The notes below the pieces were generated by a model that did not search any database, was not told the DNA's origin, and was given only the letters and a program-made list of their open reading frames with translations. A stretch of 64,000 nucleotides of DNA from an uncultured Clostridia bacterium (GTDB lineage: Bacteria > Bacillota > Clostridia > Christensenellales > CAG-917): assembly GCA_963542015.1 (NCBI GenBank), contig CAUTUX010000004.1:5497-69496 (forward strand). The letters run 5' to 3'. The translations under genes and the position numbers were made by a program. Of the stretch, positions 3,849 through 64,000 are shown one piece after another. The stretch's first letter is position 1. Each line of letters begins with the position of its first letter.

Positions 3849-6650
3849 ATGAAGAGGAGAGAAAATCACAAATTAGAATATGCGATGCTTTTAATTCTAA
3901 TAATTTTGCTTCTCGTAATACTAATACCTGTAACCGTATATGGAATTAGAAACAAACAACAGCCTTATATACCTCCTATAGAAGAAAAGATAAAAGAAAA
4001 AAATCCATATGAAGAATTGGAGAAGCTCTTTAAGTTTAGAAAGCTTGAAGATACTTATGCTATAGAAAAATATATAGGTAAGCTATCAAAAGTAACTATC
4101 CCAACAGAATACAAAGGGCTTAAGGTTAATCAAATAGATGATGAGGCATTTGCAAATGTAGATTTTTTAGAAAAGGTTGATGTATCAAATACAATTGAAG
4201 GAATTGGTAACAAAGCATTTGTTAATTGTACCAATTTAAATGAAATCACATTACAAGAAGGTCTAAAAGAAATATTATCAGATGCATTTTCTAATACTGG
4301 TCTGAGTTCGGCAAAGATTCCAAGTACAGTGAAAAAGATAGACACAAGTGCATTTAAAGAATGCCAAAATTTAACTGAAGTTACACTTGAAGAAGGATTA
4401 AAATCAATAGGTGCTGAAGCATTTTTAGGAACACCAATTAAATCAATTACAATTCCAGGAACAATACAAAATATGGGCGATAGAGTTTTTGAAGGATGCT
4501 ATAATTTGAAAAAAGTTATTTTAGGAGAGGGAATAACAGAAGTAACACCAAGATATTTTAATAGAGCTACACTAGAAGACATAACAATTCCAGGAACAGT
4601 TGAAGTAATAAGAAGTCATACATTTTATTTACTTAATTGTCTAAAAACAGTAACACTCAATAAGGGAGTGAAAAAAATAGAAGAGAGGGCATTCCTAGAA
4701 TCTGCAATTAAATCGATTACAATTCCAGGCACTGTAGAGAAAATTGAGACTTATGCATTTAGTTATTGTAAAAATCTAAAGGAAGTAGTGCTCAATGAAG
4801 GATTAAAGGAAATAGCTGCTGATGTATTCAGATACACAGCAATTGAGTCAATTACTATTCCAGGTACTGTTAAGGAAGTAGGATGGGAAGCATTTGCATT
4901 TTGCGATAATTTAAAAAAGGTAACATTAGGCGAAGGAATAAGCAGTTTTAACAGTAATTATTTTAATGAAAAATCTTTAGAAGAAATAATACTTCCAAGC
5001 ACATTAGAAACAATAGGGGATAATGCATTTGAGAATTGTAAAAAATTAAAATCAGTGGATCTAAAATATGGTTTAAAAACAATAGGGTATGGAGCCTTTA
5101 AGGGAACATCAATTGAATCAATAAGAATCCCAGGAACAGTAGAAGAAATTGGAGATGAAGTTTTTAAAGGATGTAATTTAAAAAAAGTAGTCCTAGGCGA
5201 GGGAATAAAAGAGATAAAATCAAACTATTTCAATAGAGAAACATTAGAAGATATAACAATTCCAGGAACAGTAGAAGAAATTAGAGATAATGCATTTGAG
5301 AATTGTTATAGTTTAAAAAAAGTAGAACTTCATGATGGGCTGAAAAGAATAGGTGTTGCATCATTTGCTAGGACATCACTTAAGTCAATTCTAATACCTA
5401 GTACGGTACAGGAAATAGGAACTGTTGCATTTTATGACTGTCAGAATTTAAAACAAGTAGAACTTTATGATGGATTGAGAACAATAGGAAATGGAGCATT
5501 TAGCGAAACATCAATAGAATCAATAATAATTCCTGGAACTATTACAGCTATGGGGAGTGATGTTTTTGCAGACTGTAATAATTTGAAAAAAGTAGTATTA
5601 GGAGAGGGAATAGAAGAATGTACAGATAATTATTTCAATAAACCAACATTAGAAGATATAACAATTCCAAGTACGGTAGAGAAGATAAATACTGGAGTAT
5701 TTTATGATTCCAAGAATTTAAAAAAAGTTGAACTTCATGATGGATTAAAGCAAATAGAAGATTGTTCTTTTCAATATTCATCAATTCAATCAATTATAAT
5801 TCCAAAAACCGTTGAAAAAATAGGTGCTTCTGCATTTATGGGATGCAATAGTCTAAAAGATGTAACGCTTCAAGATGGACTGAAAAGAGTAGACTATTAT
5901 GCATTTAAAGGAACATTGATAGAAACAATAAGGATTCCAGGCACAATAACATTTGAAAAATTTGGAGATAAAGTTTTCGAAGAATGTGATAATTTAAAAA
6001 AAGTAATTTTAGGAGAAGGAATAAAAGATGTTGTAGATAATTACTTTAATACATCATCATTGGAAGAAATTTCAATTCCTGGCACAGTTGAAGAAATAAA
6101 TGCCTGTACTTTTGAAGATTGCAAAAAATTAAAATCTGTAACGCTTAATGAAGGATTAAAAACAATTTGGGATAGAGCTTTTGAAGAAACATCGATCGAA
6201 TCAATTATACTTCCAAGCACAGTGGAACTTATATATGATCGTGCCTTTGCCGATTGTAAAAAATTAAACTCAGTAATATTGAATAATGGATTAAAAGAAA
6301 TAGGTAAAGGTGCTTTCAGAGGAATAGCAATTGAATCAATTAAGATTCCAGCTACTGTGGTGTATATAGGAGATTATACATTTGGTAAATGTGATAATTT
6401 AAAAGATATAATTTTAGAAGAAGGAATAAAAACAATTGGGGATTTAGCATTTGGTGATGCACCAATTGGATCAATAACAATTCCAAGCACAGTAGAAGTG
6501 ATTGAGAAAGATATATTTGGGAGTAACGACAAGTTAAAAACGATAAATTGTAAAATAAAAAAGAGCTACTATGACACACATCAGACTCAACTTTATGGAT
6601 TAAGAGACTCAGAGTTAAAGGGGCGTAAAATTAACTGGTTAAATGGTTAG
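3849..6650 (+). CDS. BspA-type leucine-rich-repeat (LRR_5-like) surface protein with an N-terminal membrane anchor
   Basis: The start is at ATG 3849, 7 nt after AGGAGG. A hydrophobic anchor (LLILIILLLVILIPVTVYG) is followed by roughly three dozen ~23-aa repeats of the type I-x-IP-x-TV-x-x-IG-x-x-AF-x-x-C-x-x-LK-x-V-x-L. Confidence 0.85.
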   Translation: MKRRENHKLEYAMLLILIILLLVILIPVTVYGIRNKQQPYIPPIEEKIKEKNPYEELEKLFKFRKLEDTYAIEKYIGKLSKVTIPTEYKGLKVNQIDDEAFANVDFLEKVDVSNTIEGIGNKAFVNCTNLNEITLQEGLKEILSDAFSNTGLSSAKIPSTVKKIDTSAFKECQNLTEVTLEEGLKSIGAEAFLGTPIKSITIPGTIQNMGDRVFEGCYNLKKVILGEGITEVTPRYFNRATLEDITIPGTVEVIRSHTFYLLNCLKTVTLNKGVKKIEERAFLESAIKSITIPGTVEKIETYAFSYCKNLKEVVLNEGLKEIAADVFRYTAIESITIPGTVKEVGWEAFAFCDNLKKVTLGEGISSFNSNYFNEKSLEEIILPSTLETIGDNAFENCKKLKSVDLKYGLKTIGYGAFKGTSIESIRIPGTVEEIGDEVFKGCNLKKVVLGEGIKEIKSNYFNRETLEDITIPGTVEEIRDNAFENCYSLKKVELHDGLKRIGVASFARTSLKSILIPSTVQEIGTVAFYDCQNLKQVELYDGLRTIGNGAFSETSIESIIIPGTITAMGSDVFADCNNLKKVVLGEGIEECTDNYFNKPTLEDITIPSTVEKINTGVFYDSKNLKKVELHDGLKQIEDCSFQYSSIQSIIIPKTVEKIGASAFMGCNSLKDVTLQDGLKRVDYYAFKGTLIETIRIPGTITFEKFGDKVFEECDNLKKVILGEGIKDVVDNYFNTSSLEEISIPGTVEEINACTFEDCKKLKSVTLNEGLKTIWDRAFEETSIESIILPSTVELIYDRAFADCKKLNSVILNNGLKEIGKGAFRGIAIESIKIPATVVYIGDYTFGKCDNLKDIILEEGIKTIGDLAFGDAPIGSITIPSTVEVIEKDIFGSNDKLKTINCKIKKSYYDTHQTQLYGLRDSELKGRKINWLNG

Positions 6651-6808
6651 CATCTAAGTATTTTTAGTAATTTTTAAATAATATATCTATAAAATTTAAA
6701 ATTTTCCATAACATCATATCTTAGGTTAAGAAGTTAAGGTTTTGATTTAGTTTGTAAAAGTATGAGGCAATAAAATATAATTAATAATATTGTTTTGAGA
6801 GGTAAATA

Positions 6809-7804
6809 ATGAAATTTCTTGATGATTTATTAAGTAGAGCAAAAGTTTTAAATAAGAAAATAGCTCTTTGTGAAGTTGAAGATGAACGTGTTGTTAGTGC
6901 TGCGGATTATTTGTCATCTAAAGGCATATGTAAAGTAGTCCTAATAGGGAATGAAGAGCAGATTCGCCAACAATTTCCAAGTTTAAAATTGAAGGATGTT
7001 GAATTCTGGGATGTTAAGAAATATGCAAAGACAGAAGATTATATAAATCTTCTTTATGAGTTGAGAAAAGCAAAAGGAGCTACAATTGAATGGGCTAGAA
7101 ATGCTGTTAATACGGATATGTTAACATTTGCAGCACTTGGTCTTAAATCGGGCGATCTTGATGGTATTGTTGCTGGTGCAGTTTTATCATCTGCAGCGGT
7201 TTCTAGAGTTGCATTTCAGATAATAAAGGCAAAGCCAGGACTAAACAGTGTTTCATCATGTTTTGTAATGGTTCCTCCGGAAGGATTTAAGGGGACAAAA
7301 GAGAAAGCAATTATTTTTTCTGATTGTGGAGTTATTCCGTATCCAACAAAAGAACAATTAGTGGATATTGCATTTGCAGCAAAAGACAGTGCTGAAAAGA
7401 TTATTCAAACAAATCCAAGAATAGCGATGTTGTCATTTTCAACCAAGGGAAGTGCTAAACATCCAGCTGTTGAACTTGTACAAGAAGCATTTGAAATGGC
7501 TAAGGCAAAAGACGAGAATTTAGTTATAGATGGAGAAATGCAATTTGATGCTGCTTTTGTTGAAAGTGTAGGAAAACAGAAGGCACCTAATAGTAAAGTT
7601 GCTGGAGAGGCAAATGTATTTATTTTCCCTAACTTAGACGCAGGAAATATAGGATATAAGATAGCTCAAAGATTGGGAAATTTCACGGCTCTTGGACCTA
7701 TTATGCAAGGCTTGGATAAACCAATAAATGATTTGTCTCGTGGATGTAATATGATGGATATAGTATATGTTGCAGCAATTACATGTCTGCAATCACAGGA
7801 GTAA
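6809..7804 (+). CDS. pta: phosphate acetyltransferase
   Basis: 331 aa with family-typical segments (DGIVAGA, SDCGV, NVFIFPNLDAGNIGYKIAQR, INDLSRG). It lies directly upstream of ackA. Confidence 0.9.
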   Translation: MKFLDDLLSRAKVLNKKIALCEVEDERVVSAADYLSSKGICKVVLIGNEEQIRQQFPSLKLKDVEFWDVKKYAKTEDYINLLYELRKAKGATIEWARNAVNTDMLTFAALGLKSGDLDGIVAGAVLSSAAVSRVAFQIIKAKPGLNSVSSCFVMVPPEGFKGTKEKAIIFSDCGVIPYPTKEQLVDIAFAAKDSAEKIIQTNPRIAMLSFSTKGSAKHPAVELVQEAFEMAKAKDENLVIDGEMQFDAAFVESVGKQKAPNSKVAGEANVFIFPNLDAGNIGYKIAQRLGNFTALGPIMQGLDKPINDLSRGCNMMDIVYVAAITCLQSQE

Positions 7805-9270: not shown

Positions 9271-10280
9271 TGAAAATAGTTGTTGATGCATTTGGCGGCG
9301 ATTACTCTCCGGAAGAGATAATTTTCGGGGTAATTGATTATATTCAACAAAGCTCAAAAACTGAAATTATTCTCACAGGGAACGCAAATAAAATAAATGA
9401 AATTTTTAGAGAGAATAATTTTAATTCTTCACGGATCACAATTGTAGATGCTTCTGAAATAATAACTAATAATGATAGCCCTGTATTTGCAGTAAGAGAG
9501 AAAAAGAACAGTTCAATGACTGTTGCGTTGGATCTATTAAAATCTGATGGTGTTGATGCATTTGTAACTGCTGGTCCTACTGGTGCTGCACTTAGTGGTG
9601 CATTTATGAAGCTTGGAAGGATAAAGGGAATTTCACGCCCAGCACTTGCTTCGATTCTTCCAACAAAAATTGGTGGCAGTGCAATATTATGTGACTGTGG
9701 GGCCAATGTTGATTCAAAGCCAATAAACATGCATCATTTTGCAATAATGGCAAATTATTTTGCTAAAAACTATTTGGGAATTAAGAACCCAAGAATAGGG
9801 TTACTTTCAAATGGGACTGAAAAAGAGAAGGGTAATTTATTAAATAAAGAAGTTTATAAAATTCTTGAGCAAGATAATAAATTGAATTTTATTGGGAATT
9901 GTGAAGCAAGAGAATTATTGTCGGGCGACTACGACGTAATAGTTACAGACGGTTTTGCAGGAAATGTAGCACTTAAAACTGCGGAAGGAATTGCTGATGC
10001 AATCTTTACTAAATTAAAAACCACCCTTAAAAAGAAGGGTAATTTAATTCAGAAATTTGGTGCCTTACTTATGAAAGGTGTTTTCAAATCTGTTAAGAAA
10101 GCATTGGACTACAACACTCTCGGTGGAGCATGCCTTTTGGGAGTAAATAAAATCATTATAAAAGCACATGGTTCATCTAAGAGACTTGCTATTAAGAACT
10201 CAATTTTTCAAGCTGAAACTTTAGTAAAAGTAGAACTATGTAATAAAATCCATGAAGGAATTATAGAATATGGACTATAG
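9270..10280 (+). CDS. plsX: phosphate acyltransferase PlsX
   Basis: 336 aa starting MKIVVDAFGGDYSP, with CDCGAN and TDGFAGNVALKTAEG. Confidence 0.9.
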   Translation: MKIVVDAFGGDYSPEEIIFGVIDYIQQSSKTEIILTGNANKINEIFRENNFNSSRITIVDASEIITNNDSPVFAVREKKNSSMTVALDLLKSDGVDAFVTAGPTGAALSGAFMKLGRIKGISRPALASILPTKIGGSAILCDCGANVDSKPINMHHFAIMANYFAKNYLGIKNPRIGLLSNGTEKEKGNLLNKEVYKILEQDNKLNFIGNCEARELLSGDYDVIVTDGFAGNVALKTAEGIADAIFTKLKTTLKKKGNLIQKFGALLMKGVFKSVKKALDYNTLGGACLLGVNKIIIKAHGSSKRLAIKNSIFQAETLVKVELCNKIHEGIIEYGL

Positions 10281-31367: not shown

Positions 31368-32432
31368 CTAATCTTCTGGTTTATTTGTAAAATCAATTAA
31401 TTCTGCGGCATCTCTACGCTTTTCTTCATCTGTAGCGACATAATGTTTAACTGTAGTATTTACATCTTTGTGTCCAAGTATGTCCGCTACAAGATAAATA
31501 TCACCAGTTTTTGAATATAAATTTGTTCCAAAAGTAGAGCGTAGTTTATGAGGAGTAATATTTTTTAAAGGAGTAACAATTTTTGCAAATTTTTTCACTA
31601 AGTTTTGAATTGCCCTTGGGCACATGCGTTTTTTTTGTAGTGAGAAAAACAGTGGATCTGTGTTACCATTTACTAATTCAATATCTTTTTGGATTGACAT
31701 CCTTTCGTTGTTAATATAGGTTTCAAGCAAGTTTTTAACGACATCATTAAAATATAATATTTGCTCATCTCCGCCTTTTCGCTTAACTTTAAATTGTTTT
31801 TGTTCAAGATTGACATCATCAATATTTAATCCTACACATTCACTGATACGTATGCCTGTGGATAGTAGAAGAGTAATTAACGCTAAATCTCTTTCTTTTG
31901 TTTTCACGGCAGAAGCATATTCTCTATTAGTTAAGCCTTTCCCGAATGTAACAGTTTCTATTAAATCGCTAGCTTCATCTTCTTTTAATCTAATAATTTC
32001 TTTTTTGTGTAGTTTAGGATTTTTTACTTTGACCCCAACATTTTTAGAAATTTTCTCCTTATTATAAAAATATGCCAATATGTGTCGAATACTAGATAGT
32101 TTTCTCGATTTACTAGCTTCTTTGTTTGTATGGTTAATTCCATCTTTATCATAAAAACTAAGATAGGATAAAAAACTCTCAATATGTGAAATTGTAATCC
32201 TTTCTAGGTCCGAAATTGAGAACTCTTCAACTCTGGTCGCTTTAAAAATAAGAATGTTTTCATGTAAATAAGTAAAAAAAGTTTTTAAATCATGAGCATA
32301 ATTTAGTCTTGTTAATGTTGAAGTGCTTTGTTCAATACCAACAAAATATTCGGTACAAAAATAGGGGAGCTCATTGAGAAGTGTTTGAATTTTTTTTATG
32401 TTATTGATGTCTCGTTCTTTGTAATAATCCAT
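31368..32432 (-). CDS. site-specific tyrosine recombinase (XerC/D/S-like integrase)
   Basis: The C-terminal catalytic region contains TGIRISE, HKLRSTFGT and LGHKDVNTTVKHY. The size (354 aa) and N-terminal layout resemble XerS-type enzymes. Confidence 0.85.
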   Translation of the reverse strand: MDYYKERDINNIKKIQTLLNELPYFCTEYFVGIEQSTSTLTRLNYAHDLKTFFTYLHENILIFKATRVEEFSISDLERITISHIESFLSYLSFYDKDGINHTNKEASKSRKLSSIRHILAYFYNKEKISKNVGVKVKNPKLHKKEIIRLKEDEASDLIETVTFGKGLTNREYASAVKTKERDLALITLLLSTGIRISECVGLNIDDVNLEQKQFKVKRKGGDEQILYFNDVVKNLLETYINNERMSIQKDIELVNGNTDPLFFSLQKKRMCPRAIQNLVKKFAKIVTPLKNITPHKLRSTFGTNLYSKTGDIYLVADILGHKDVNTTVKHYVATDEEKRRDAAELIDFTNKPED

Positions 32433-59138: not shown

Positions 59139-59214
59139 GCAGGTATGGCTCAGTCGGTAGAGCAGTTCACTCGTAATGAACAGGCCGTCAGTTCGATTCT
59201 GACTACCTGCTCCA
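59139..59214 (+). tRNA. tRNA-Thr (anticodon CGT), with encoded CCA
   Basis: GCAGGTA/TACCTGC acceptor stem, GCTC/GAGC D stem, GTTCA-CTCGTAA-TGAAC anticodon arm, GTCAG-TTCGATT-CTGAC T arm. It starts 1 nt after the PAP2 stop codon. Confidence 0.9.
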
Positions 59215-59551
59215 ATTAATACAATTTCAACTTATATGCTTTATATACAATATTTTAACGCAAAAAAGTTGATTAATTTAATTTTAAACAAACATGCTTG
59301 TTATTAGAAAAACAAAGCATAAAAGTAAATATAATTTAATTGATAAATATTTGCAAGAAAGAGTATTTCATTGAATCATCATTTACGCTTCTAAATTTAA
59401 AATTAAAGCAAATAAGTTGAACCTATAAAAAATAACTTTAAAATAAGATAAAAAACAGAGAAGTAACTTTTAGTATAAAAATATGCCTGGTTTATGGGTA
59501 ACATCTAACAAAAATTATAATAAGAAATATTAGAATGAGTTAACTTAAAAT

Positions 59552-59578
59552 AAAAAAACACTCAGTGAGTGTTCTTTT
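59552..59578. terminator. bidirectional rho-independent terminator inside the ORF-free region
   Basis: An A7 run is followed by the aacactc-agt-gagtgtt hairpin and then cTTTT. On the minus strand the hairpin is followed by T7. Confidence 0.6.
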
Positions 59579-59755
59579 ATGAGAGCCTCGAGCTCCAGTC
59601 TTATAAACCTAGCTTTTATCTGCACAACATAATTGTGTCACGTCTTTGTAACCATTACACGTTGTCGACAAATAAATAATAAAGGAGAAAAAAATGTCAA
59701 AAATTGAAAAATTGTAAATAGAAAATTAATAAAAAATCAGCCAATAACACAAATA

Positions 59756-59873: not shown

Positions 59874-60470
59874 ATGACAAAATACACAGAGATATTAAAT
59901 ATTGCAAATTCAAATAATGGACTTATTACAACCAACATGATAGTTGATGCTGGTTATTTAAGAAGTAACATAAATTATCTTTTAAAGTTAGGATTATTAA
60001 TTCGTGTGAGTAGAGGAGTATATAAAATACAAGACGCTGTAGAGGATGAATTTTTAAATGCTCAGACAAAATATAAAAAAGGCGTTTTTTGTTTAGAAAC
60101 TGCGTTATATTTATACAATATGATTGATGAAAAACCGAATAAAATACAGATGACATTTCCAAAGACATATAACTATACTAATCCAAAAAAAGATGGAATT
60201 ATATGCAATAATTCTGTAGAGCCACAATATAGTCTGGGTGTAGAAAATGTTATTTCGCCAAGAGGCAATATTGTACGAGCATATAATTTAGAACGAACAA
60301 TTTGCGATATTTTAAAACCTGTAAAAAATAGAGGACTTAGATTTATAAGGGAAACTTTACAAAAATATATGTTAAAAGAGAATAAAAATATAGCTTTTCT
60401 TTCTCAATGTGCTAGAGATTTGAAAGTTGAAAAAGAACTTAAACTACATCTTGAGTTGCTGACATTATGA
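59874..60470 (+). CDS. AbiEi-like antitoxin/transcriptional regulator (no AbiEii partner present)
   Basis: The N-terminal wHTH GLITTNMIVDAGYLRSNINYLLKLGLLIRVSRGVYKI and the C-terminal CLETALYLYNMID...RAYNLERTICDIL match the AbiEi (COG5340) pattern. Confidence 0.7.
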   Translation: MTKYTEILNIANSNNGLITTNMIVDAGYLRSNINYLLKLGLLIRVSRGVYKIQDAVEDEFLNAQTKYKKGVFCLETALYLYNMIDEKPNKIQMTFPKTYNYTNPKKDGIICNNSVEPQYSLGVENVISPRGNIVRAYNLERTICDILKPVKNRGLRFIRETLQKYMLKENKNIAFLSQCARDLKVEKELKLHLELLTL

Positions 60471-61610: not shown

Positions 61611-61640
61611 CTATGCGTAAAATTATTATTTTACGCATAG
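61611..61640. repeat. perfect 13-bp inverted repeat (hairpin) immediately after the rep stop codon
   Basis: ctatgcgtaaaat-tatt-attttacgcatag. It is either a terminator-like element or an origin-associated hairpin. Confidence 0.6.
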
Positions 61641-62789
61641 TTATTGATTATTTATTTCTTTAGTAATTTTTTTAGCTATATTCTCCCCTATTCTTCTGTT
61701 AACTTTAATTTCATAATATTTAATTTTATTAAACTCATCTTCCTTTATAAGAGACATTCCATTTTCTTTAACAAGCTTCTCAATAAGACCAGGAGTGCAA
61801 TAATAGATGTCTGTATTGCGGACATCAAAGTTGCGAGTTCTATAGAAGCGTTTTTCCCCAAATAATGTTGCTGGTTCTTTAGTTATATATTTAGTAAGGT
61901 AGTTTACAATTTTCTTTTGTCTTACATTAGGTTCAATACAAACAACAGTATTAAAACCTCTATCCCATTCCTGGCAATTAAATATCTGATTGTTAAATAC
62001 CGTATAAAGGAACTTTCCATAATCCTTGCTTTTGCTGTTACTATTTCTTGCTGGTTTTAATAAAAGGTCAATATCAGCAATTAATGCATGCAGATGGAAT
62101 CCGCCTTTTTCATGCTCCTCTACTACCGATAATACTTTTACATCCTTATTTATCTTTTGTAGCTCCATCAGAAAATAACGCCATTGTTGTTTTATTGCGT
62201 TTCTATCCATCCTTATAGCTTCATCCTTAAAAGTGAAAGTGCAGAAATATTCCCAGTTGTAGTTCAGAGCGTAATCGTAAAAATTCTTTTTAGCTCTAAC
62301 ATCACCTAAACGAACTGACTTTATCAATTGAGCTAAAGTTGCATTATCATTTATTTTCTCAATCATCTCAGTTTCTTTATTTAGCTTAAAGTTTCTTCCA
62401 GTACTCCGCTCTTGCCAATAAGCATTATCATGAGACATTGCTGAAGTAATCATATCTGACTCATCAGAACAGTTTGCCAGGTCTACTTTTGGCGTTAAAA
62501 ATCCTTCTTCAAAAAAAGCTAATTCAATTTCATTAGTAACATCTGAATACTTAACAATCGTGTTTTTTAATGTTCGATCGACTTTTTTAAAAACTTCATT
62601 TTTATCTTTATAAACTTTGCTATATTTATCTTTTTGAAAAATATCAAATAGACTTCCTTGCATTCCAGACTTTTCATATATCTTAAAGTCTTTTTGATAT
62701 TGCTTATTTATGGGATCTTTAAAAAACTCATCTACTTGCTCTTTATTTAAATTTCCTTTAATTAAATCTTCAAATATTACTTCTTTCAT
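61641..62789 (-). CDS. rep: rolling-circle replication initiator (HUH endonuclease Rep)
   Basis: Motif 1 is FCTFTF, motif 2 (HUH) is GGFHLHALI, and motif 3 is NYLTKYITKE with a Y-x-x-x-Y pair. A strong SD AAGGAG precedes the ATG. Confidence 0.8.
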   Translation of the reverse strand: MKEVIFEDLIKGNLNKEQVDEFFKDPINKQYQKDFKIYEKSGMQGSLFDIFQKDKYSKVYKDKNEVFKKVDRTLKNTIVKYSDVTNEIELAFFEEGFLTPKVDLANCSDESDMITSAMSHDNAYWQERSTGRNFKLNKETEMIEKINDNATLAQLIKSVRLGDVRAKKNFYDYALNYNWEYFCTFTFKDEAIRMDRNAIKQQWRYFLMELQKINKDVKVLSVVEEHEKGGFHLHALIADIDLLLKPARNSNSKSKDYGKFLYTVFNNQIFNCQEWDRGFNTVVCIEPNVRQKKIVNYLTKYITKEPATLFGEKRFYRTRNFDVRNTDIYYCTPGLIEKLVKENGMSLIKEDEFNKIKYYEIKVNRRIGENIAKKITKEINNQ

Positions 62790-62829
62790 TTTTCACTCCT
62801 TTTTCTTTGAAAGACAATAAAAATAAATA

Positions 62830-62845
62830 TGTAAGAATTCTTACA
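62830..62845. repeat. perfect 16-bp palindrome TGTAAGAATTCTTACA between the nick-site hairpin and rep
   Basis: Read directly from the sequence. It lies 41 nt upstream of the rep ATG, a position suited to an operator or Rep-binding site. Confidence 0.5.
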
Positions 62846-62872
62846 CTTTTTTTAAGGTGTTTTTGCAATAGT

Positions 62873-62897
62873 GCTACCATTATCAAGTAATGGTAGC
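62873..62897 (-). other. candidate double-strand origin (dso) nick-site hairpin
   Basis: The minus strand reads GCTACCATT-ACTTGAT-AATGGTAGC, a 9-bp perfect stem. CTTGATA (62887-62881) sits in or at the edge of the loop, on the same strand as the rep sense strand and 84 nt upstream of rep. CTTG/ATA is the nick core of the pC194/pUB110 family and the phiX174 origin. Confidence 0.55.
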
Positions 62898-62970
62898 TTT
62901 AACTATCCTGATGAATTAATACTGACAACCGTTTCGCATTGCTTCATACTAGTTCCCTCCTTCATATATA

Positions 62971-63200
62971 TTCCTGCGTGCGTTGCACGCCTAAGGGTCG
63001 AGCATGCCTCGGCGTTCGCCTCTGGGCATGCTCTTCCTAATTTACGGCTTGCTGCCTCATCGCCGGCGTGGCTAGGGGTCATGCGATCCCTAGCCACCTT
63101 GGTACGACTTTCTGGATCTCTACCAGCTGTCAAGGCGTGAACATAAACGCTAAAGCATTTATCCTTCCCGCCAGCAAAGCTGGAACCTTGACAGCCGTCT
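62971..63200 (-). other. GC-rich multi-hairpin element: candidate single-strand origin (sso) or novel structured RNA
   Basis: A hand count gives 130/230 = 56% GC, against 15/60 = 25% for 62701-62760 inside rep. There are six perfect stems: 63186-63195/63126-63135 (10 bp); 63171-63175/63179-63183 (5 bp); 63143-63150/63155-63162 (8 bp); 63068-63077/63088-63097 (10 bp); 63000-63008/63025-63033 (9 bp); 62976-62981/62985-62990 (6 bp). Confidence 0.5.
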
Positions 63201-63231
63201 GTTTCTTTTATCAATTCCTTCATCGTTATTT

Positions 63232-64000
63232 TCATCTCTTGTCCTCTATATGGTTATATTTAGAGAGGTCACGGATAAAATAACTGTTCTGAGCTTGTAG
63301 CTCCGCTATGGTTGCTCGTGTTGACTCATAGGTAGGTACATCTCCTATTCCTACCTCTTCGCTTCGTGATGCGTCAAAAAACGCTTGATATGCATCTGTC
63401 TTAAATCTGTCTGAATATATCTTCTTTAACATTAGGTAATATTTATGCTCTGTTTTTTCATCCAGCATCCCGTGAGAGACTTCTAAGCGACATTTATATA
63501 GCCCGTATTTATTCAAAATCCGTTCGTTAATTCCATAGATCCAGGATATAAACTTCCTGGCTAAATAATATTTAAGAGAATCATTAGAACGATAAAAAAT
63601 ACGATCAAGGTTATATCGATCAAATAAATTAATACTCCATTCTATAAATACACGCTCAAAATATAACGGGAACACGCATTTATATTCATCACTCTTAATT
63701 ATGCTGATTATGTCAAACAACTCCCGCATATCTGCCTCTAAGGATTCTGGGCGTTGTTCATCTACTAATATCTTGCTATATGGATAGTGATTAATCGTGC
63801 TGGTATGTCTGATTAGCTTTATAAATGCGTTAAAATAATCATTCTTTTGATTAGGTTCATCATCTGTTCTCTTCATCCCTTGCGTTGTTATCTGATTGCC
63901 TCTCTCTTTACCAATCTCTGTTATTGCGAAAAACCCAAAATCAAACACATTTGATAACTGATTGTCTTCTATTATTTTTTTACCTAATCTCAAAAAATCA
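63232..64000 (-). CDS. hypothetical protein, N-terminus probably beyond the window
   Basis: The frame is open to the window edge (in-frame codons precede the TTG at 63993). I recognise no family. Its stop overlaps the next ATG (ATGA at 63235-63232). Confidence 0.5.
   Translation of the reverse strand, partial: DFLRLGKKIIEDNQLSNVFDFGFFAITEIGKERGNQITTQGMKRTDDEPNQKNDYFNAFIKLIRHTSTINHYPYSKILVDEQRPESLEADMRELFDIISIIKSDEYKCVFPLYFERVFIEWSINLFDRYNLDRIFYRSNDSLKYYLARKFISWIYGINERILNKYGLYKCRLEVSHGMLDEKTEHKYYLMLKKIYSDRFKTDAYQAFFDASRSEEVGIGDVPTYESTRATIAELQAQNSYFIRDLSKYNHIEDKR

Follow-up and report, generated by a model that had tools for sequence, protein, structure and literature searches.

In the filamentous Ff phages (f1, M13 and fd) the viral strand carries, in order, the last morphogenesis gene, a block of large hairpins which holds the packaging signal and the minus-strand origin, the hairpin at which the plus strand is nicked, and rep. 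The Vibrio phages CTXphi, VGJphi and TLCphi, which are integrative mobile elements exploiting Xer (IMEX), have genomes of 5-10 kb with a replication initiator (Rep) of the HUH class, a divergently transcribed repressor of the RstR type and no integrase, and their remnants and variant copies pile up at one site. In TLCphi, VGJphi and the gonococcal genomic island (GGI), the attP site copies one arm and the centre of the chromosomal site and has a degenerate second arm (PMC5357621). A morphogenesis ATPase of the pI/Zot kind is the only universal marker of filamentous phages (PMC6813254). The inoviruses of gut Clostridia (Enterocloster; PMC10061712) and those recovered from metagenomes (PMC6813254) were all found by means of this pI-like (Zot) marker. 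Here we describe a locus at the end of a 64,000-nucleotide stretch of contig CAUTUX010000004.1, from an uncultured Clostridia bacterium; the whole of this stretch is referred to as the window. The host genome is low in GC, and its ThrRS has 66% identity to the one of an Acutalibacteraceae metagenome-assembled genome, which places the host only approximately. With a probability of about 0.7, positions 61621 to 64000 are the replication end of an integrated rolling-circle element of approximately 9-10 kb, most likely a temperate, non-tailed, single-stranded DNA (ssDNA) phage of the filamentous kind.

By analogy, the element fits an integrative phage of the IMEX type. It has in common with the Vibrio phages a small genome with an HUH Rep and no integrase, the divergently transcribed RstR-type repressor, and the piling up of remnants and variant copies at a single site; with TLCphi and the GGI it also shares apparent integration at the terminus through one arm and the centre of the site, the second arm being degenerate. 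It differs from the Vibrio phages in that the host is an uncultured monoderm member of the Clostridia, that the site is a perfect palindrome unlike the XerCD dif site, that the only Xer gene seen is XerS-like, suggesting a single recombinase, and that Rep belongs to Pfam family PF23343 and not to the RstA or Cri type; a homologue of pI/Zot or of a coat protein is also lacking among the element genes. Compared to the inoviruses of gut Clostridia and metagenomes, the host class, the small prophage flanked by direct repeats and the related phage-type HUH Reps are the same, whereas the marker through which those were found was undetected in this element. Its phage-like nature is suggested by the inoviral affinity of the nearest Reps, the repressor, the size, a gene set rich in membrane proteins, the IMEX lifestyle, the Ff-like arrangement of the origin, and the strand skew. 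A virion containing ssDNA is probable.

The Rep protein and its predicted origin

Rep is a protein of 382 aa encoded on the minus strand at 61641..62789. An earlier, sequence-only reading of the window had noted the three motifs of rolling-circle replication in their proper order, and this is borne out by the list of open reading frames (ORFs), by the match to PF23343 (REP_ORF2-G2P) and by the invariance of the motifs. These are FCTFTF (motif I, with F182, T184, T186 and F187), HLHALI (the HUH motif, with H232 and H234) and NYLTKYITKE (the catalytic pair Y297/Y301, with K304). The PF23343 profile matches residues 181-305 with E 3e-10 and 40.7 bits, compared to a cut-off of 27.8, and was found in 16 out of 16 database homologues. 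The motif I and HUH residues, together with Y297, Y301 and K304, are invariant among 17 sequences with identities down to 29%. In PHROG the protein matches phrog_3419, a rolling-circle initiator family. The structure model has a pLDDT of 63.6 (75-87 in the core) and gave 46 matches in BFVD at E<=1e-3, the best with E 4e-12, those that carry names being phage Rep proteins. In the PDB the top matches were HUH nucleases, all weak (E>=0.04). As judged from its sequence, Rep is an intact two-tyrosine HUH initiator, and nicking activity is predicted for it.

Relatives of Rep are rare. At cluster level only 16 were obtained among 5.8 billion proteins; in contigs of species-representative genomes the identity was no higher than 40%, and in IMG/VR no higher than 37%, and neither collection yielded the species of the window itself. 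Among GenBank phages the only matches were 'bajarodino' and 'Dulem' viruses, with 26-32% identity. One of these records was inspected, and was found to be annotated as Inoviridae and to have Zot. The first matches had been read as microviruses, a reading which was dropped because the records are those of Inoviridae with Zot.

The double-strand (plus-strand) origin was located at 62863..62897 (minus strand), hairpin and 3' flank included, by folding and by comparison of relatives. The hairpin occupies 62897-62873, with arms GCTACCATT (62897-62889) and AATGGTAGC (62881-62873) and the loop ACTTGAT. The heptamer CTTGATA lies at 62887-62881 on the sense strand of Rep, 83 nt before the ATG, and a nick is predicted between G62884 and A62883 (CTTG/ATA). 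The sequence-only reading had already described this hairpin upstream of Rep on the same strand, and its statements on the sequence proved correct. The conserved flank on the 3' side reads ACTATTGCAA. Folded as single-stranded DNA, the hairpin has an energy of -10.5 kcal/mol (z = -5.2), and none of 200 shuffled sequences folded as well. Neither component is unusual in itself: CTTGATA occurs 16 times in the window, compared to 15 expected, and perfect hairpins with a stem of at least 9 bp occur five times, compared to 4.0 in shuffled sequence. Both the origin hairpin and the attachment palindrome (see below) are among the five. As both the heptamer and the hairpin are at chance frequency, the case for an origin rests on adjacency to Rep and on the relatives.

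The upstream regions compared were those in contigs of the 16 Rep relatives and in relatives from species-representative genomes. In seven contigs, L001-L007, with Rep identities of 62-92% to the window, the 35-nt origin core GCTACCATTACTTGATAATGGTAGCACTATTGCAA is identical while the flanks have diverged, and in L008 (58%) the hairpin has one altered arm base. At greater distances the stem itself is replaced. In L013 (38%) the stem is CGACACC/GGTGTCG around GCTACTTGATAAT; in L014, L016 and L017 (38-40%) it is TTGATACTAC/GTAGTATCAA around xTACTTGATA; in L009-L012 (37%) it is TGTGACCAGT/ACTGGTCACA around TTCT(T/C)GTT; and in L018 (34%) a GC-rich palindrome is followed directly by TACTTGATAAT. 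The motif (T)ACTTGATA is kept in L013, L014, L016, L017 and L018 despite their other stem sequences, and is not found in L009-L012. The stem has therefore been replaced four times, giving five stem/loop versions, over a range of Rep identity down to 34%. A constant loop motif within replaced stems is what the recognition and nick site of a Rep should look like, and at the level of sequence the comparison shows the hairpin to be conserved by compensation. The proposal that an HUH Rep and its cognate CTTG/ATA hairpin origin reside in a chromosome is strengthened by these relatives.

Mobility and the attachment site

When metagenome contigs were scanned for exact copies of the attachment palindrome, in search of empty sites, a single short contig of relevance was obtained along with seven that are unrelated. 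Contigs from the same host species were instead gathered by look-up of the CorA protein of the window, which is identical in all of them. Five of these contigs (L048, L049, L052, L054 and L055) have an empty site, with the gene order MutS-MutL-MiaA-Met-gamma-lyase on one side and CorA-AbiEi-PAP2-enolase on the other. In another five (L047, L050, L051, L053 and L056) an element lies between Met-gamma-lyase and CorA, measuring 7.5-9.7 kb from attL to attR, and at least two gene-content types occupy this same site. The empty sites contain one copy of attB, CAACTATGCGTAAAATAATAATTTTACG(A/C)ATAGTTG. In the occupied sites, attL consists of AACTATGCGTAAAATAATAATT joined to GTGCTTAA and further element sequence, and attR of element sequence ending in AACTATGCGTAAAATAATAATT joined to TTACGCATAG. 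The attR of the window, at 61611..61640, was defined by comparison of empty, occupied and circular forms and consists of the dif-like palindrome CTATGCGTAAA-ATAATAAT-TTTACGCATAG. Read from 61640 to 61611, it starts one base past the Rep stop codon; the element ends at about 61621, and to the left of attR, in window coordinates, is host chromosome with CorA. The Logan contig L001 (8,995 nt) has a terminal overlap of 30 nt, which indicates a circle carrying attP, and its attP junction joins AATTATGCGTAAAATAATAATT to GTGCTTAAAAT. The empty and occupied sites, the att sites and the circular contig show that the element is mobile; it integrates site-specifically and a circular form exists.

The sequence-only reading had left four options open, namely an integrated plasmid, a mobilisable element, an ssDNA prophage and a chimeric assembly, the last with a possible mis-join near 59.2 kb. 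A chimera of a plasmid or phage contig with the chromosome might be suspected since the source is an 88-kb contig of a metagenome-assembled genome (MAG) and the window ends inside the element. However, 10 or more assemblies, made independently from different samples, contain the same Rep-palindrome-CorA junction together with the CorA-AbiEi-PAP2-enolase backbone across 59.2 kb, and the empty sites and exact att duplications agree with this. With identical junctions in so many separate assemblies mis-assembly is excluded, and the range of options is reduced to that of an integrated element.

To the left of the palindrome in the five empty sites (at approximately 9640-9790) there is a remnant of about 190 nt of the gene for a basic protein of 121/122 aa (MSKIEINKNTR...), and in L059 the left end of a copy begins at the basic-protein gene (positions 1-430). 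These point to repeated integration and partial deletion at the site. Such remnants, the deleted or truncated copies in L056 and L059, and the fact that the copy in the window is only partly visible would also suit a decaying, domesticated prophage, no longer replicating and inherited vertically next to corA. We regard this as very unlikely. Presence or absence of the element varies within one host species, two or more gene-content types are found at the same site, a circular attP contig exists, and all the catalytic residues of Rep and the origin are intact. In addition, copies that differ by 8-19% are nevertheless collinear, as expected of a circulating population.

The attachment palindrome has two inverted arms of 11 bp and a centre of 6-8 bp, and attP shares one arm and the centre with attB. 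L003, from a second host species, has the same arms around another centre (..AGCGTAAA-AGAAAGAT-TTTACGCT..), and the repeat of the element resident there matches the centre of that host. In the Christensenella-like MAGs L014, L016 and L017, the site is CTATTCGCAAA-GGTATGGT-TTTGCGAATAG, that is, CTATTCGCAAA-N8-TTTGCGAATAG; the repeats consist of the left arm and the centre, and the second attP arm is degenerate. The rule of one arm plus centre thus applies to three clades of hosts whose centres differ, and it is the design known from TLCphi, the GGI and VGJphi (PMC5357621).

The position of the site fits a replication terminus, as far as can be read from skew and gene orientation. At the empty sites the GC skew is positive on the left side, over 10 kb, and mainly negative on the right side, with genes converging on the site; from 1 to 56 kb in the window the skew is +0.15 to +0.27, and about 85% of the genes point towards the attachment site. 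No canonical dif was found in the 64 + 21 kb examined. No recombinase domain was found in the element genes, either by Pfam searches of the called genes in at least 15 loci or by direct scans, orphan ORFs being not fully excludable. The absence of an integrase, which had been noted for the window, therefore extends to the element as a whole. A tyrosine recombinase of the Xer type is encoded by the host, outside the element, at 31368..32432 on the minus strand (354 aa, Pfam Phage_integrase and Phage_int_SAM_1). In NCBIfam it matches XerS best (E 3e-52), with 177 bits compared to an equivalog cut-off of 267, and XerA, XerC and XerD come next. The gene adjoins rho in a neighbourhood of housekeeping genes, at a distance of 30 kb from the palindromic site. 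This XerS-like protein may be the host's single chromosome-dimer resolvase, and we infer that it is a candidate for the enzyme of integration and excision, with the palindrome as its putative dif site.

Several observations tell against a dif function for the palindrome and a terminus at this position. The skew switch coincides with the switch in gene strand, and an effect of replication cannot be told apart from one of coding strand. The palindrome does not resemble the canonical XerCD dif: it agrees with the dif sites of E. coli and B. subtilis at 13 of 28 positions and with difSL at 18 of 28. A near-identical palindrome, GTGCGTAAAATAATAATTTTACGCAC, lies between a -10-like box and a ribosome-binding site in L042 and L044, and recurs in L045, all three being unrelated low-GC metagenome contigs. 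That operator-like position calls for caution in reading the motif as dif from sequence alone.

Integration could instead be brought about by Rep itself, in the HUH-mediated manner of IS91, Helitrons and adeno-associated virus (AAV), or by an unrecognised recombinase of the element. Several element ORFs have no detectable family, and the role of the host Xer enzyme is itself a proposal. Even so, we consider this route quite improbable: CTTGATA is absent from attB and from the junctions; 11-bp inverted arms around a centre of 6-8 bp, with an attP of one arm plus centre, are the signature of a tyrosine recombinase and of IMEX; and three host clades that differ in the centre all follow the site rule. 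Use of the host Xer enzyme is thus the route we favour.

Further features were observed around the site and in more distant relatives. A tRNA-Thr(CGT) gene (59139-59214, plus strand) and a gene for an AbiEi-type antitoxin (59874-60470, plus strand) lie between PAP2 and CorA. No AbiEii toxin partner was seen adjoining AbiEi, and in the second host species (L003/L004), where the region is syntenic in other respects, the protein-gene tables show no AbiEi gene. An element of approximately 150 nt resembling a small RNA lies at about 59545-59700 in the window (minus strand), and a second, inverted copy is found in L048 at 9420-9640 (minus strand), so that the inverted copies flank the attB-CorA-AbiEi segment. 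It ends in an intrinsic terminator (AACACTC..GAGTGTTTTTTT), one of its hairpins shows a compensatory change (CCAGG..CTGG compared to TCGGG..CCGA), and no Rfam family was found for it. In L009, where Rep has 37% identity to that of the window, an IS30-like transposase (HTH_38 and rve) is encoded at 6383-7420, downstream of Rep; it brings to mind ORF3 of the Spiroplasma plectrovirus SpV1. Members of the wider group may have other integration routes.

Gene content and the region upstream of Rep

Only the final 2.4 kb of the element (61621 to 64000, minus strand) falls within the window, and the element runs off at 64000. This segment of 2.38 kb aligns end to end with nine other copies at 81-92% identity, and with L008 over most of its length at 72%. 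Every related contig has a fixed gene array that ends with Rep. In L006, the array begins with genes of 84 and 97 aa, a divergent repressor of the helix-turn-helix (HTH) type and a 54-aa membrane protein, and continues with genes of 132 and 122 aa, the latter basic. Next come two proteins anchored at the N-terminus (315 and 450 aa), one of 713 aa that has a signal sequence and is anchored at the C-terminus, genes of 183 and 33 aa, and a protein of 723 aa in which N-terminal transmembrane segments are followed by P-loop-like motifs. The GC-rich block, the origin hairpin and Rep complete the array. The 315- and 450-aa proteins carry the same N-terminal anchor motif. In the 54-aa protein a hydrophobic helix at the N-terminus is combined with a basic C-terminus, and no homology to known coat proteins was seen. 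The best NCBIfam family for the repressor is RstR of CTXphi (E 6e-16, below the cut-off). The sense strand of the element has a GC skew of +0.27 to +0.29, which is twice the value of the host leading strand, at a GC content like that of the host. HTH and Rep are the only recognisable domains in the element genes, and no Mob/relaxase is present.

From the 723-aa protein gene, which is the last before the origin region in every relative, the window retains the C-terminal 255 codons at 63232..64000 (minus strand, from the ORF list), running off the window end. Full-length homologues in L002, L006, L047, L050 and others have the motifs GTMGTKKT and VDEQRPES, and from these an ATPase-like function may be inferred. 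The C-terminal domain has more than 150 homologues, with 40-46% identity, in MAGs of Clostridia. No match to the protein was obtained in Pfam (with all 44 members), PHROG, NCBIfam or a PDB sequence profile, and no similarity to Zot was detected; alignment to inovirus Zot with hhalign gave a probability of 0.1.

Between this gene and the origin lies a GC-rich structured block of four hairpin domains (62976..63196, minus strand), delimited by GC content, fold z-scores and compensatory changes. Its GC content is 52-56%, compared to 25-30% in the surrounding sequence and about 30% in the genome. One domain is Y-shaped, two are long hairpins, one of them with GGCGAACGCC at its tip, and the last is a short GCGTGC/GCACGC hairpin. 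Fold z-scores relative to shuffled sequences are -5 to -7 (-5.0 to -6.7), so that the structured element upstream of the origin, as the sequence-only reading had it, is real. The block of L003, with only 58% identity, forms the same four domains when folded separately, although its stems differ in sequence (z -7.7), and in an alignment of 11 sequences compensatory changes were seen at 11 base pairs. Rfam has no family for it. A 110-aa ORF spans the block in the window; as L003 and L051 have no called ORF there, we do not regard it as a gene. The block was also considered as an ssoA-type single-strand origin (sso), since TAGCGT, which is CS-6-like, is present in the window. The loop of the homologous hairpin differs in L001, L003, L053 and L056, and this reading was rejected because the TAGCGT motif is not conserved. 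By analogy with Ff, we propose that the block serves as the complementary-strand origin and/or the packaging signal of the displaced single strand.

An AGGAGG ribosome-binding site (62962-62955) and a micro-ORF of 14 codons (62947-62903, MKQCETVVSINSSG) follow the block, together spanning 62903..62962 on the minus strand. In 11 out of 11 distinct variants exactly 14 codons follow AGGAGG, with only M1 and C4 invariant. The stop lies 2-15 nt before the hairpin across the variants, and in the window the micro-ORF ends 5 nt before it. The product could be a very small structural protein, or else a leader peptide that couples translation to control of the origin or of Rep. A perfect 16-bp dyad, TGTAAGAATTCTTACA (62830..62845, minus strand), was read directly from the sequence in the interval that separates the origin from the ribosome-binding site of Rep; relatives have other dyads at that position, ATGTAT..ATACAT in L003 and TATGAA..TTCATA in L002, and an operator-like role may be supposed.

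The order of last gene, hairpin block, nick hairpin and rep is that of the Ff intergenic region. There is no sequence similarity to Ff, the Ff nick site is different, the present block is rich in GC within a genome rich in AT, and the block and the nick hairpin are set apart by a 14-codon ORF.

Relationship to plasmids and phages

The sequence-only reading had pointed to a likeness to the pC194 origin. This likeness is real, as alignment to NC_002013 shows: the pC194 origin is tcttatCTTGATAATaagGGTAACTATTGCC, the window origin cattaCTTGATAAT-GGTAgcACTATTGCaa has 21 positions identical to it, and the common flank is CTTGATAAT..GGTA..ACTATTGC. When a 51-nt segment containing the window origin was aligned to all of pC194, the best local alignment was exactly at the pC194 origin; 11 of 300 shuffled sequences score as high. 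The records also bear out the presence of CTTGATA in the origins of pUB110 and phiX174, with nothing beyond these 7 nt in common, and that of phiX174 has its origin annotated at 4306, immediately after CTTG.

The likeness to pC194 is confined to the DNA of the nick site and does not extend to Rep. In Pfam scans at E<=1, Rep matched none of the families Rep_1, Phage_GPA, Phage_CRI and Rep_trans, and in profile comparison nothing aligned with the pC194 Rep at the motifs. The link made by the sequence-only reading thus stands for the nick-site DNA, and falls for the protein, which is outside the Rep_1/pC194 family. Another explanation to be weighed is that of a rolling-circle plasmid of the pC194/pUB110 kind, or of an integrative mobilisable element of that kind, which has no virion and was simply captured in the chromosome. 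The nick core and flank match the pC194 origin better than anywhere else in pC194, the order of structured region, double-strand origin (dso) and rep resembles the order sso-dso-rep, and there is no recognisable capsid or pI gene. We consider this explanation unlikely. Compared to the plasmids of this group (Rep_1, PF01446), with which the nick core CTTG/ATA and, for pC194, the flank are shared, Rep is of another family and has the two-tyrosine YxxKY motif of the phiX174 or phage type. Mob/relaxase is lacking, the ssoA signature is not conserved, and the element is integrated and, at 9-10 kb, larger than those plasmids. Moreover, a repressor and about 10 conserved orphan genes, rich in membrane proteins, are maintained in fixed order at Rep identities down to 58%.

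With the gene A protein and origin of phiX174, the element has in common the CTTG/ATA cut after G and the two-tyrosine YxxKY motif, and the BFVD fold matches include microvirus Reps. In profile comparison with the phiX174 protein A, motifs I and II align in the right order, with an E value of 0.17, which is not significant. A prophage of the Microviridae, whether phiX174- or gokushovirus-like, should have a capsid gene, and Pfam and PHROG searches of the L006 element ORFs gave no F/VP1 capsid match. As there is in addition no Phage_GPA match, the GenBank matches are Inoviridae with Zot, and the size of 9-10 kb and the membrane-protein content do not fit, we give a microvirus hardly any credence.

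The reading of the element as a temperate phage of the filamentous kind has its own difficulties. No homologues of pI/Zot, coat, capsid or secretin proteins were detected in the element ORFs. The topology of the 723-aa ATPase-like protein is opposite to that of pI, the membrane part being N-terminal, and its Walker A motif is deviant (GxxGxKKT). Its AlphaFold model, from 43 sequences, has a pLDDT of 58.5, and a Foldseek search of the PDB with this model gave no match. Among GenBank phages the ATPase-like protein matches only a 57-kb 'Bacteriophage sp.' record that lacks annotation, and the 713-aa protein matches none. The left two-thirds of the window's own copy lie beyond the window, an exact look-up of its Rep returned no contig, and the deleted copies L056 and L059 also count against an intact phage. 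Since one defining feature of each group was looked for and not found, the element cannot be filed with the Inoviridae, the Microviridae or the pC194 plasmid family.

In the mechanism we propose, the hairpin would be extruded in the supercoiled circular duplex, and Rep would cut CTTG/ATA on the gene-sense strand and hold the 5' end through Y297 or Y301. From the 3' OH a host polymerase would continue the strand past rep, attP and all the other genes, so that the four-domain GC-rich block, just 5' of the nick, would be displaced last. The second tyrosine would then cut the regenerated origin and the strand would be sealed into a circle, on which the block may fold to form a priming site for the complementary strand and/or a packaging signal, as in the f1/M13 intergenic region. 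For lysogeny the element, having no recombinase, would offer an attP that copies one arm and the centre of the palindromic terminus site, and the host Xer-type enzyme (candidate at 31368-32432) would insert and excise it as for CTXphi, VGJphi and TLCphi. The divergently transcribed RstR-like repressor would control the element.

A more specific proposal, to which we give somewhat less than an even chance, is that these are members of an undescribed lineage of temperate, integrase-less rolling-circle elements in uncultured gut Clostridia and Christensenella-like bacteria. They would probably be non-tailed ssDNA viruses whose morphogenesis genes, including that for a membrane-anchored ATPase-like protein, lack detectable relatives in known phages, and would hijack the non-canonical, perfectly palindromic terminus site of a single XerS-like recombinase. 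In the literature we found no description, in Firmicutes, of a Xer-exploiting element with a palindromic site and a single XerS-like recombinase.

The CTTG/ATA core links phage-type two-tyrosine Reps with the origin of the plasmid pC194, and, as the nick site is constant while the stem occurs in five versions, the Rep/origin pair is a directly testable prediction. The block of approximately 220 nt, with its compensatory changes and no Rfam family, is an undescribed conserved structured nucleic-acid element. As no Zot marker was detected, marker-based detection would miss the element. Gut Clostridia thus harbour small prophage-like elements in a blind spot of marker-based searches for inoviruses and microviruses, with only Rep and the repressor recognisable. 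The dif system of the Legionellales was likewise revealed by the integration of mobile elements (PMC9765430). The attachment site defined here from empty, occupied and circular forms points to a candidate dimer-resolution site in a poorly known bacterial group, and to a single Xer-type recombinase that may act on it.

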